A DNA stretch of 64,000 bases from Escherichia coli (GTDB lineage: Bacteria; Pseudomonadota; Gammaproteobacteria; Enterobacterales; Enterobacteriaceae), in the NCBI RefSeq assembly GCF_017348835.2, contig NZ_CP071375.1. One strand, written 5' to 3'. Position numbers and translations under genes: made by a program. Below, piece after piece: positions 59,173-63,974 of this stretch (positions are counted from its first letter, which is position 1; each line of letters starts with the position of its first letter). The notes beneath the pieces are model-generated. The model made no database searches and was not told the origin of the DNA. It saw only the letters and a list, made by a program, of their open reading frames with translations.

Positions 59173-60056
59173 TTATAACGTTACGGAAGCCGTTTTTTCT
59201 TCTGTCGCCATCTCTTTATTTTTGCGTTGGTTGATTTCCTCAATAATCAACGCAAACCGTTTTTCATTGAGTGTGTAAAAGAATCCCATCGTCAATGCAG
59301 CAATAATTGCCAGTGCACAAGGCCAGATAAAAATGAGCTGACGCAAACCCTGTAATGTCGCATCACTTTGCGCGATGTTTGGAACATAACCGATTTGCGT
59401 CAGCATAATCCCTGGCAAGAAGCCAGCAAGTGCGGCAGAAATTTTACGAAAGAAGGTATAACCGGTATAAACAGAACCTTCGGCACGAATACCGGTTTTC
59501 CATTCACCGTAATCTACGGTATCTGGTACCAGTGCCCAGTTCAGGCTGTTTACAAAGGCCGTGCCAAAAAAGGCGACACAAGAGAACATGACGAAAGTGA
59601 AAGAGTTACTTCCCCAGAAATAATTCAGGATATCACCAACCGCCCATAGCACCATGCCAGCTAAATAAACCTGTTTTTTACCAAAACATTTTACAGTTAA
59701 TGGCACCAGTAATACGCCGATGAGGATGCATCCCATACTGAAGAATCCCATCCACGACAATAAATTAATATCATTCAGCACATACTGGGTGTAATAGACC
59801 TGAATCGCCAGTTTGATATTAAATGCCGCCAGGGTACACAAGTTAGCAATGCATAAAACCAGCAATGGCGGATTCCGAAATATCGCGCAAAATGATTTGA
59901 GAATACTGGCTTTATGTCCGGTTGGCGTTGTGTCCACATAATGCTCTTTGACGCCTCTGTAGCACAGCATCATAAAAATAAAGCCGCCAATGGAGAACAT
60001 AAGTGCCGCACAGGCATAACCGACGGTTGAGTCAGAAAAAAGCGACTGCAACGGAA
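59173..60056 (-). pseudogene. yihO: C-terminal ~294 codons of MFS (GPH family) transporter yihO; N-terminal ~170 codons absent, frame runs into IS629 end
   Basis: ORF-track product begins mid-protein (xQSLFSDSTVGYACAALMFSIGG...) with open frame upstream up to the IS inverted repeat at 60057; K-12 YihO is about 467 aa. Confidence 0.8.
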
Positions 60057-60098
60057 TGAACCGCCCCGGGTTTCCTGGAGAGTGTTTTATCTGTGAAC

Positions 60099-60986
60099 TC
60101 AGGCTGCCAGATCATTATTTCCGATGGAAGCATAATAAGCTTTTTCTGCTTCTGCCGGAGGAATATGGCCCAGCCTTTCCAGCAATCGTCGATTGTTATA
60201 CCAGTCCACCCACGTTAGTGTGGCCAGTTCCACTTCTGTCCGGTTTTTCCAGCTCTTACGGTGTATTACCTCCGCTTTGTAAAGACCATTGATGCTCTCA
60301 GCCATCGCGTTGTCATACGAGTCGCCAGTACTCCCTGTTGATGCCAGTAATCCGGCTTCCTTAAGCCGCTGCGTGTAGGCCAGCGATACATACTGAGAAC
60401 CTTTATCACTGTGATGGATTGTGCCGGACGGCCGACGGGCCCACAACGCCTGCTCCAGTGCATCCAGCACGAATGTTGTTTCCATGGATGATGAGACCTG
60501 CCATCCCACGATGTATCCGGCGAACACATCAATGATGAACGCCACATAAACGAAGCCCTGCCATGTGCTTACCCAGGTAAAATCAGCCACCCACAACTGG
60601 TCTGGACGTTCTGCCACGAACTGACGGTTTACGCGGTCGCATGCGGCAACGGCTTTCCGGCTGACGGTAGTGCGGACCTTTTTACCCCGGAGAACACCGG
60701 CAAGTCCCATAACTGCCATGAGACGTGCCACAGTGCATCTGGCCACTCTGATACCTTCCCGTAACAACTGACGCCAGACTTTACGCACACCGTATACCTG
60801 GTGATTTTCATCGTATACGCGCTGTATCTCTTTCTTCAGCCAGTCATCGTGCTGCGCACGGGCACTGCGTTTATCCGGATGATGTCGCTGTTGCTGACAA
60901 TGGTAATACGTTGACGGGGCAATATGCAGTTCGCTGCATACCGGTCCGCCCCCGTACTGCTCACGCAGCTTATCCAGCAGTGGCAT
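60099..60986 (-). CDS. IS629 transposase OrfB (DDE catalytic part)
   Basis: 295-aa ORF in the -1 frame relative to OrfA, overlapping its stop (AAAAAATAATG); DDE integrase-like (…WVADFTW…HSDKGSQY…). Confidence 0.9.
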   Translation of the reverse strand: MPLLDKLREQYGGGPVCSELHIAPSTYYHCQQQRHHPDKRSARAQHDDWLKKEIQRVYDENHQVYGVRKVWRQLLREGIRVARCTVARLMAVMGLAGVLRGKKVRTTVSRKAVAACDRVNRQFVAERPDQLWVADFTWVSTWQGFVYVAFIIDVFAGYIVGWQVSSSMETTFVLDALEQALWARRPSGTIHHSDKGSQYVSLAYTQRLKEAGLLASTGSTGDSYDNAMAESINGLYKAEVIHRKSWKNRTEVELATLTWVDWYNNRRLLERLGHIPPAEAEKAYYASIGNNDLAA

Positions 60987-61312
60987 TATTTTTTCCAGAG
61001 GCGGTCGAACTCCGCCTTCGCAAAATAAGCGGAAGCCTGGCGAAGGATATCGTTACTGCGGCGCAGTTCACGATTTTCACGTTCCAGCTCTTTCAGACGC
61101 TGACGTTCAGCGGTGGTGAGTCCACCATCACCACTCCCGGTATCCCGCTCATGCTGGCGAACCCAGACACGCAGAGTCTCCGGCGTACAGCCAATCTTTG
61201 GGGCAATGGAACAAATTGCCGCCCACTGTGAGTCATATTCATCCTGACTTTCCAGAACCATACGAATCGCCCGCTGACGGACTTCGGGGGAAAAACGAGT
61301 ATTTTTAGTCAT
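60986..61312 (-). CDS. IS629 transposase OrfA (HTH DNA-binding part)
   Basis: 108-aa [26 protein letters not shown]... with leucine-zipper-like C-terminus, typical IS3 OrfA. Confidence 0.9.
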
Positions 61313-61455
61313 CCTGTTTACCTCTTTCTCAGGGAGTTTAGTCTCCAGGATTTCCGGGGCGGTTCACATATCCATACCTGCCAGAGAGTTCATAAATATT
61401 TGACCAATATCATTTGAATCTATGGAGAGAAAAGTACCCTTGTCGGATCTTTAAA

Positions 61456-62498: not shown

Positions 62499-63974
62499 TC
62501 AGACTCCCATCCCTACGGTATACGAGTTAGATTCATGAATGAAATCGACATTTTTAAAAAACGAATCTTGTAAAACATCCGTGTTGATATTACCTTGCAA
62601 CCCAACATTAAATTTGTTAGAGACATGAAGAACTCGAATATCAAAAAGGTCTTTTAACATCATTACTTCTTCGGCTGTTAATGAATCGCAACTAAAATAT
62701 CCCTGTTGATCAAAAAGGTTTTCTATTTCTCCACCATCGGCGAGGCGTTTTTCAAGGAGTGTTTGCAACATCGAGTTGCCAAGGACAATGGATATAGTGC
62801 GATCTTTCGCAGATTTACACCCCATCACAACGGCAACATTCGTATCCCCCTCAGGAGTTTCATTTATCGCTGTCGCTAAAATGGTGGTCAAACACGCAAA
62901 CGGAACTGTATTTCTTTCGTGATTTAATTTATCTACCAGTTCATTCCATTTATCAAAAGCCGGACGATATTTGTTGCGCACAGAAATATCCGACTGGTTA
63001 AACAATTCAGCCATGCGATTTTTTATCATCTCGATATCCGGCGAACCAGAAAGACTTTGCGCATAATACGGTCCTGATGATGTTGCATACATTAAAGCCG
63101 AGCCCACACCTGTCGCCATGATGGGCGCAGCCACGGTTTTGGCAAGGGCGACGCTGCGATGGCTATGCGCTTCACAGGTTAAAGGAACATATTCCACTGA
63201 CTGCGGTAATTCCTTACATGCCTCCCTCATCATTGCGGTATGCTTTACAAACAACGGTTTTTCACTGCCAAAAAAAACCTTCTGCTTAATTGCACTAAGA
63301 AAACGCAAATCAAAAATGATTGTTTTTGGTTTATTATTTTTTGGCACATTTCCTATTATCCCGCTAAGAACCTTCCTTGCTGCATGGAGATTTTTTTGCA
63401 CAGCACATAACACAATTGACGAAGCCTTCTCTACTTCGTCATTGATTTTAATTTTAAAATCTGCATGATATACGTTGACGGGCAGTGCAAGTATATCTGG
63501 CCCTACATCTTTGGCTGAGTATTTATTGGTGATCGACGGCCGTGAATCCACGAGAAAACTTAGCTGCAAATTATGCTCTATATTACCAGCTGTTTTTGTG
63601 GTGTGATTAAACATAGAGATGCCACCTCTCATTCTTTCACACATATCCTCAACTTTTTCACTTCGTTCTTGTGGCAATTTGGCTTTAACGTTAATTTGAT
63701 GATTTTTACCCGTGCATTCCTTAACTACAAGGGGAATGTTATCTAAAGTGCCATACAGGCTAATAACGTCACCAGGATTTTTATCATGTAAGTAAGTTTG
63801 ATTAATACTTGAAGCATTCACAAAGAGGTCAATATTATAACTGTTTATAACTTCACCTACATCAAATGTGTAGTGCTTACTCTGGAGGCTGCCATCCTTA
63901 TTTAATTGTATATCAATCAATATATCCCCGGACTTTGTCACCATATCTTTGCCATAAACCATTTGCATAGCCAT
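62499..63974 (-). CDS. Putative CX5R P-loop phosphatase, phosphoinositide-phosphatase-like (INPP4 / SopB / IpgD-type); N-terminus probably beyond window edge
   Basis: 491-aa ORF with no in-frame stop between first ATG (63974) and window end; exact CKSAKDRT octapeptide at residues 386-393 (minus strand 62819..62796, read directly as TGT AAA TCT GCG AAA GAT CGC ACT); AT-rich composition; next to IS629. Confidence 0.6.
   Translation of the reverse strand: MAMQMVYGKDMVTKSGDILIDIQLNKDGSLQSKHYTFDVGEVINSYNIDLFVNASSINQTYLHDKNPGDVISLYGTLDNIPLVVKECTGKNHQINVKAKLPQERSEKVEDMCERMRGGISMFNHTTKTAGNIEHNLQLSFLVDSRPSITNKYSAKDVGPDILALPVNVYHADFKIKINDEVEKASSIVLCAVQKNLHAARKVLSGIIGNVPKNNKPKTIIFDLRFLSAIKQKVFFGSEKPLFVKHTAMMREACKELPQSVEYVPLTCEAHSHRSVALAKTVAAPIMATGVGSALMYATSSGPYYAQSLSGSPDIEMIKNRMAELFNQSDISVRNKYRPAFDKWNELVDKLNHERNTVPFACLTTILATAINETPEGDTNVAVVMGCKSAKDRTISIVLGNSMLQTLLEKRLADGGEIENLFDQQGYFSCDSLTAEEVMMLKDLFDIRVLHVSNKFNVGLQGNINTDVLQDSFFKNVDFIHESNSYTVGMGV

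Follow-up and report, generated by a model that had tools for sequence, protein, structure and literature searches.

We analysed the recoding region of an IS629-type insertion sequence in Escherichia coli and consider it likely that two sites for -1 frameshifting operate there. The main site would be a run of uridines in orfA that is stimulated by a downstream pseudoknot, the second would be a run of six adenines immediately before the orfA stop codon, and OrfB would also be made by reinitiation of translation. An earlier note on the window (the whole 64-kb stretch of E. coli DNA under analysis) had placed the slip site within 60975–61000, on the adenine run. The bases in this interval form the 3′ end of a known feature, the recoding region of IS629 (IS3 family, IS51 group), which lies on the minus strand. 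The frameshift biology of IS629, IS3411 and the ALIL pseudoknot family is already known. From the anatomy of the region, its Rfam match, its conservation and its covariation, we infer which site is used and how often; the motif assignments for IS3411 and IS629 are drawn from indirect citations. Few insertion sequences of pathogenic E. coli are better known than IS629, and experiments have already addressed its frameshift region; the significance of the present analysis is mainly one of correct annotation.

The element occupies positions 60057–61366 of the window on the minus strand and is complete at 1310 bp, as judged from its pair of inverted repeats and its full-length identity to other copies. 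The left inverted repeat (IRL, TGAACCGCCCCGGAAATCCTGGAGA) is located at 61342–61366 on the minus strand, and the right inverted repeat (IRR, 60057–60081, plus strand) is 88% complementary to it. These 25 nt repeats are imperfect and give the element termini that read TGAACC...GGTTCA; both the size and the imperfect repeats ending in 5′-TG...CA-3′ are those of the IS3 family, whose members measure about 1.2–1.5 kb. The earlier note had named the element IS629, and we agree. Across its full length the sequence shares 99.9% identity with IS copies from numerous E. coli genomes, and 4261 of 5426 complete genomes of this species contain a match. OrfB shows 97% identity to the protein that carries the name 'IS629 transposase OrfB', and the element's protein shares a 90% cluster with 'IS3-like element IS629 family transposase', so that near-identity to IS629 is established against a named protein and its cluster rather than against the original reference sequence. 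The fused product scores 363 bits against the curated IS3-family transposase model NF033516 (cut-off 160), and RefSeq gives such copies an 'AL1L pseudoknot' feature and the label 'IS3 family transposase, programmed frameshift'. A search of the 64-kb window for a second copy of the element found none.

Both IS1203 and IS3411 are isoforms of IS629 (PMC3271280). The window copy resembles these elements in its length of 1310 bp and its 25 nt inverted repeats, in its 108-aa orfA and its 295-aa orfB in the -1 frame, and in the possession of the U-run, the A-run and the ALIL cassette. It differs from them in two respects, which are a rare single-nucleotide change in the internal loop of the pseudoknot (T418G, window position 60949, Val122Gly) and unequal 3-bp flanks, the latter because of an apparent inversion.

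The two open reading frames have the arrangement typical of the IS3 family, in which an orfA encoding a helix–turn–helix (HTH) protein is followed, in -1 phase and with overlap, by an orfB encoding a DDE (rve) protein. Specifically, orfA (60986–61312, minus strand; 108 aa plus stop) encodes an HTH_Tnp_1 domain. The product of orfB (60099–60986, minus strand; 295 aa plus stop; -1 frame) has HTH_21, rve (DDE) and rve_3 domains and carries the motifs WVADF, HHSDKG and DNAMAES. What the earlier note had read at the junction is indeed there, on a strand that it left unstated. The 3′ end of orfA reads ...CTC TGG AAA AAA TAA, with the six adenines at 60994–60989 and the stop codon at 60988–60986 (together 60994–60986). 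The ATG of orfB (60986–60984) shares one A with this TAA, forming UAAUG, and is in the -1 frame. Traced back from the ATG, the orfB frame continues without a stop for 66 nt (22 codons), to a TAA at 61055–61053. Codon-by-codon reading therefore gives an overlap of 67 nt (60986–61052, minus strand) in which the orfB frame is open and orfA is unterminated. Only two Z_ZZN tetramers stand in frame within it, U_UUU (61025–61022) and A_AAA (60992–60989).

The first of these tetramers forms part of U_UUU_G (61021–61025, minus strand), which is read in the 0 frame as UAU UUU GCG and resides 33 nt (11 codons) upstream of the A-run. We assign it as the family-conserved -1 slip site on the basis of its spacing from a stem-loop, its conservation and the joins found in NCBI protein records. 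The conserved site at 61025–61021 falls outside the interval in which the earlier note had placed slippage. The region at 61031–60915 (minus strand) matches the Rfam family ALIL (RF01497) over the full length of the model (1–117) with a score of 116.1 bits (E = 5e-31), the gathering score of this family being 50 bits. Stem-loop I (SLI, 61000–61016, minus strand), identified by Rfam and by folding, has the 17 nt sequence GGCGG-AGUUCGA-CCGCC and a predicted stability of -7.5 kcal/mol. Its GGCGG begins after a 5 nt spacer from U_UUU, inside the 4–10 nt range sought for a stem-loop 3′ of an in-frame slip motif. Stem-loop II (SLII, 60915–60954, minus strand; -20.3 kcal/mol), which is defined by Rfam RF01497, folding and covariation, carries an internal loop at 60949–60944. 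The apical loop of SLI, GUUCGA (61005–61010, minus strand), is complementary to the consensus of this internal loop, UCGGAC, through six pairs; in the window copy the internal loop reads GCGGAC and five of the six are kept. Folding recovers both SLI and SLII, and the 127 nt region has a z-score of -3.4. The window thus shares with ALIL RF01497, the stimulator of IS3411-type elements, a full-length match, an SLI located 5 nt past U_UUU and the loop complementarity, and departs from it in that the terminal loop-loop A-U pair is replaced by A-G.

This layout agrees with that described for related elements. In IS51-group elements, both stem-loops are located downstream of the slippery site (PMC4737148; PMC5009743), with stem 1 adjoining the shift site and stem-loop 2 situated 44–104 nt further 3′ (PMC5009743). 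Under published search rules, the U-run has the 17 nt SLI at +5 nt, whereas the A-run has only a long SLII-based helix at +10 nt. In a list ranked by structure size, which starts at 17 nt, the first element is IS3411 (PMC4066793); this smallest size equals the length of SLI. We found no IS3411 or IS629 motif entries in the supplementary tables of that study. Stimulation of -1 frameshifting in vivo by the ALIL pseudoknot of IS3411 is attributed to Mazauric et al. 2008 by the papers that cite it (PMC4066793; PMC5009743; PMC4737148). Of the tetramers measured in E. coli, U_UU.U and U_UU.C rank in the top three for shifting and A_AA.A comes last of six, and tetramers that lack a stimulator shift near background (PMC4066793).

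To compare the two candidate motifs without favouring either, the SLI 17-mer (GGCGGAGYTCGACCGCC) was used as a query against 100,044 species' genomes, one for each bacterial or archaeal species. Among its 121 matches, 86 adjoin same-strand sequence similar to IS629 OrfA or OrfB, and these relatives come from many phyla and have OrfB identities of 37–93%. In frame and exactly 5 nt before SLI, 78 of the 86 carry T_TTT (40 cases) or T_TTC (38 cases), and the eight that have neither at this position appear decayed. In the stretch from SLI to the orfA stop, an in-frame tetramer of any kind is found in only two of the 86 relatives, and a single one, an IS629 relative from E. albertii (AAA AAG TGA), has an A-run. 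Some relatives have an overlap of about 46–49 nt, in which the -1 frame opens 21 nt before SLI and only T_TTY and SLI are found inside. Representatives on plasmids of Acetobacter, Xanthomonas, Acinetobacter, Rhizobium and Streptomyces combine a U-run and an ALIL match with no A-run, and the Acinetobacter plasmid copy has a true heptamer, U_UUU_UUC. Since the codons of the U-run also encode a conserved A-Y-F motif of OrfA, part of this nucleotide conservation could be driven by the protein.

Covariation is evident in the RNA structure itself. In an alignment of 84 sequences, 87.6% of the cells at ALIL pairs form standard pairs, versus 30–44% when the partners are slid, and both members of 11 pairs change. 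For the loop-loop helix, pairing reaches 96% in the same sequences, with one compensatory change (C-G to U-A) that is specific to the IS629 lineage. The earlier note had allowed that a reference IS629 might show the frameshift site elsewhere, and the conservation of the U-run together with the ALIL match largely establishes that it does.

In the mechanism that we propose, ribosomes translating orfA would reach U_UUU_G, 5 nt beyond which the apical loop of the 17 nt SLI would pair with the internal loop of SLII, which follows 45 nt downstream, to form the ALIL pseudoknot. The pseudoknot would stall the ribosome, tRNA-Phe would slip one base back from UUU to UUU, and reading would then continue in the orfB frame to yield OrfAB with the junction AYF/CEGG. 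A second and weaker slip could occur 33 nt further on, at the A_AAA_U that lies within the pseudoknot linker just before the orfA stop. The resulting protein, with the junction ...LWKK/IMPLL, would differ from the U-run product over 11 residues. The UAAUG overlap would also permit OrfB to be made alone by reinitiation.

Several features of this scheme are shared with other members of the family. IS911, IS150 and IS3, which undergo -1 slippage on A_AAA_AAG or A_AAG, resemble the window element in having an overlap, a downstream structure and an OrfAB product, and in having OrfA and OrfB as possible regulators. They differ in using A-rich motifs and tRNA-Lys, whereas the window has a conserved U-run and tRNA-Phe, and in that their stimulator is a hairpin or an H-type pseudoknot instead of an apical-loop/internal-loop pseudoknot. 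IS6110 of Mycobacterium tuberculosis (U_UUU_AAA_G) likewise belongs to the IS3 family and combines a U-containing motif with a pseudoknot downstream, although its motif is heptamer-like (UUUUAAAG) and its sequence is distant. In IS6110, the pseudoknot has been shown to control transposase production (PMC5896891).

That OrfAB arises by a -1 frameshift, as the earlier note proposed, is the accepted mechanism for this family and is consistent with the RefSeq label. The A-rich heptamer that it invoked is absent, since the A-run reads G_AAA_AAA in the orfA frame, which does not conform to X_XXY_YYZ and leaves only the tetramer A_AAA as slippery. The run together with the stop codon's first base (60988–60994, minus strand) includes the last sense codon of orfA and holds A_AAA_U (60992–60988), the candidate second slip site. 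Runs of this kind are not unusual by count, as the window contains 93 A6/T6 matches against 76 ± 10 expected from shuffles, and hence it is the context and not the run itself that is meaningful. The A-run is located in the linker between SLI and SLII, downstream of SLI, and SLII starts 35 nt past it. The stimulatory structure consequently surrounds the A-run rather than following it. We also considered a hairpin just past the run, for which an ACUGCU/AGCAGU stem exists, and rejected it as a stimulator, given that the 34 nt linker has a z-score of -0.5 relative to shuffles.

These observations bear directly on the alternative that the A6 run is the sole or principal slip site for OrfAB, with its stimulator downstream. 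A_AAA is in frame and within the overlap, and every enterobacterial variant seen retains either this tetramer or A_AAG. A-rich motifs are, moreover, the commonest in the IS3 family (PMC4066793), and an extended helix containing SLII could begin at +10 nt from the run (-40.5 kcal/mol over 92 nt), although its outer pairs are not obviously conserved. In two NCBI protein records, P0003 and P0005, the fusion of the frames falls at the orfA stop. Against this, G_AAA_AAA provides no canonical heptamer, A_AA.A is the weakest usable tetramer and would shift at background level if unstimulated (PMC4066793), and the 34 nt downstream are structured no better than their shuffles. SLI is positioned upstream of the run and SLII 35 nt downstream, and 85 of the 86 relatives lack the A-run yet have the overlap, the U-run and the pseudoknot. 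We therefore regard the A-run as very unlikely to be the principal site.

A lesser role for the A-run is better accommodated. It is retained only in the enterobacterial IS629 lineage, and judged by its sequence it is most likely a second, auxiliary slip site that is lineage-specific and weaker than the U-run. The low rank of A_AA.A and the near-background shifting of unstimulated tetramers (PMC4066793) lead us to expect a weaker site, and the lack of a convincing stimulator argues for low efficiency there. The proposal of the earlier note that slippage occurs at the A-run accordingly survives in part: this is not the conserved, structure-stimulated site, which is U_UUU_G, but it holds the only other in-frame tetramer. 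Chen & Hu 2006, to go by its title, announces 'Two frameshift products' for IS629. Such a title needs a second site in addition to the U-run, and within the overlap A_AAA is the only other in-frame candidate. Chen and Hu are said to have described two signals, TTTTG and AAAAT, both of them active in -1 frameshifting in lacZ fusions, and one of the two products is reportedly the transposase while the other bound and stabilised it. This pair of signals fits both the anatomy of the region and the enterobacterial retention of A_AAA or A_AAG.

Alternatively, the A-run may have no recoding role, and simply supply two lysine codons and an A-rich spacer between a weak Shine–Dalgarno-like element, GGA, and the orfB AUG. 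All OrfAB would then come from the U-run, and UAAUG would serve for reinitiation of OrfB. The overlap of stop and start codons (UAAUG, 60984–60988, minus strand) is a likely termination–reinitiation site, and together with the GGA located 7 nt upstream of the AUG it fits a reading in which OrfB is probably made alone in this way. Overlap of the orfA stop by a start codon was counted in 63 of 83 relatives (ATG in 44 of them), but the count is weak evidence because three of the four bases that can precede TGA make NTGA contain a start codon by chance. OrfB of IS629 has been reported to reduce transposition (PMC5771124), which is compatible with its separate synthesis. The failure of the A-run to persist in the wider family and the lack of a significant adjoining stimulator also suit a spacer. 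Two frameshift products are nevertheless difficult to derive from one site, and at this position the E. albertii relative carries A_AAG, which is more slippery. On balance, we consider it unlikely that the A-run is without a recoding function, and we retain it as the second slip site in our model.

A further possibility is that RNA polymerase slips on the A6 run, so that transcriptional realignment would place some mRNAs in the orfB frame. Efficient realignment of this kind in E. coli takes about nine or more adenines; six is short, which makes such slippage unlikely. Homopolymeric A or T runs can cause it, and IS3-family elements use both mechanisms (PMC3711429; PMC4066793), but the conservation of the pseudoknot argues for a mechanism based on the ribosome. 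We regard the transcriptional route as extremely improbable and favour slippage by the ribosome.

The joins in public protein records offer a separate view of the junction, although their positions are computational and inconsistent and so carry supporting weight only. The exact fusion protein of the window copy, joined at the U-run, is present as NCBI WP_435367415.1, whereas an exact look-up of the A-run fusion (...LWKK/IMPLL) in the NCBI protein collection did not find it. Among 128 full-length relatives fetched, 126 are joined at the U-run, as AYF/C (72) or AYF/G (54), both at the UUUU/G boundary. In the remaining two, P0003 (on 99 contigs) and P0005, the frames meet at the orfA stop, giving ...LWKK/LMPLL. 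The IS3 family HMM scores the U-run fusion 4.7 bits above the A-run fusion, but it is a weak judge of the junction. When the fused transposase was used to look for diverged relatives, all the proteins recovered came from E. coli and Shigella and were 88–99% identical, and so gave no information on divergence. For one and the same DNA, three different junctions are now found in public records, and for prediction or engineering of the transposase the frames are best joined at the U-run (...AYF/CEGG...) and not at the orfA stop.

The window copy differs from the common sequence of its subtype at a single base. Position 418 of the element (60949, minus strand) is G where the consensus has T, and a 41-mer containing G418 occurs in seven of 5426 complete E. 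coli genomes. The internal loop of SLII starts with this base, and the change turns the terminal loop-loop A-U pair into A-G. The predicted probability that the internal loop is unpaired falls from 0.88 to 0.57, and the loop-loop duplex is predicted to become weaker, from -5.4 to -4.8 kcal/mol. In the protein, T418G replaces Val122 of OrfAB with Gly; this valine, part of a conserved Y-G-V motif, is present in 124 of 130 relatives. By breaking the terminal pair and favouring an alternative register of SLII, the change could lower frameshifting at the U-run. The copy might then be an attenuated or re-tuned variant of IS629 in which the balance between the two transframe products, or that of OrfAB with OrfA and OrfB, is shifted, a reading that we hold to be quite unlikely. 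The suggestion in the earlier note that the copy is potentially active is plausible, as its inverted repeats, both ORFs and its DDE motifs are intact, but it must be qualified by the rare change in the pseudoknot loop and the loss of a conserved valine.

The flanks of the element bear on its history. The 3-bp sequences on either side are unequal, ATG adjoining IRL and TTC adjoining IRR. The near-identical strain PE164 has the same flanks as the window, and in it the element joins a 5′-truncated yihO, which encodes a GPH/MFS_2 transporter, to yiiE. The ordinary E. coli gene order is fdhE-yiiF-yiiE-fabY. PE164 has a second, inverted copy of IS629 18.6 kb away, between the other half of yihO and yiiF, and the flanks of this partner are reciprocal (TTC and ATG). 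Reciprocal flanks imply two 3-bp duplications that were exchanged by inversion, and a 3-bp target-site duplication of the IS3-family type is accordingly recovered indirectly, by way of the PE164 partner copy, whose counterpart would lie beyond the end of the window. From these sequences, the element appears to be one end of an inverted yihP-yiiE segment (18.6 kb) that arose by recombination between two IS629 copies, and an inversion of this kind needs no transposase activity.

The IS629 copy in the window (60057-61366, minus strand) is flanked by unequal 3 bp sequences, TTC at 60054-60056 and ATG at 61367-61369. In the near-identical E. coli strain PE164 (loci L129 and L131), a second IS629 lies 18.6 kb away in inverted orientation, and its flanks are reciprocal to these. 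Taken together, the unequal flanks and their reciprocal counterparts at the partner copy show that the window element is one boundary of an inverted yihP...yiiE segment, which arose by recombination between the two insertion sequences.

Adjoining the right inverted repeat (IRR) is yihO (59173-60051, minus strand), which encodes a GPH/MFS_2 sugar transporter and in the window lacks roughly the first 167 profile positions. The truncation results from insertion of the IS, which cut the gene, and the remaining half of yihO is found next to the partner IS629 copy in PE164. Upstream of yiiE is an ORF of 491 amino acids (62499-63974, minus strand), for which a Pfam search returned no family above threshold. 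It contains the motif CKSAKDR, which is similar to the CX5R motif of phosphoinositide phosphatases. The RefSeq annotation of PE164 breaks this region up, with one part labelled 'transposase' and the other 'incomplete hypothetical protein'.

The element itself differs from the common IS629 sequence by a single base at 60949 (G versus T). The variant is rare: among the 5426 complete genomes of E. coli, 7 carry it. This position falls in the internal loop of SLII, the part that pairs with SLI in the ALIL pseudoknot, and the change converts the conserved Val122 of the OrfAB fusion transposase to Gly. For the same IS629 DNA, the fused proteins at NCBI (P0001-P0135) carry three different junctions, AYF/CEGG, AYF/GEGG and LWKK/LMPLL, the first two of which differ solely in the base that is read twice; these discrepancies are an annotation inconsistency.

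In an IS629 relative from Escherichia albertii (L052:335-457), orfA ends in AAA AAG TGA, such that A_AAG, a far more slippery tetramer, occupies the position of A_AAA in the window. Several actinobacterial relatives that bear ALIL (L023, L032, L083, L110 and L113) carry an 18 nt insertion in the SLI-SLII linker (columns 82-99 of alignment A1), and their motifs are of the U_UUC_UUC type rather than UAU_UUU.
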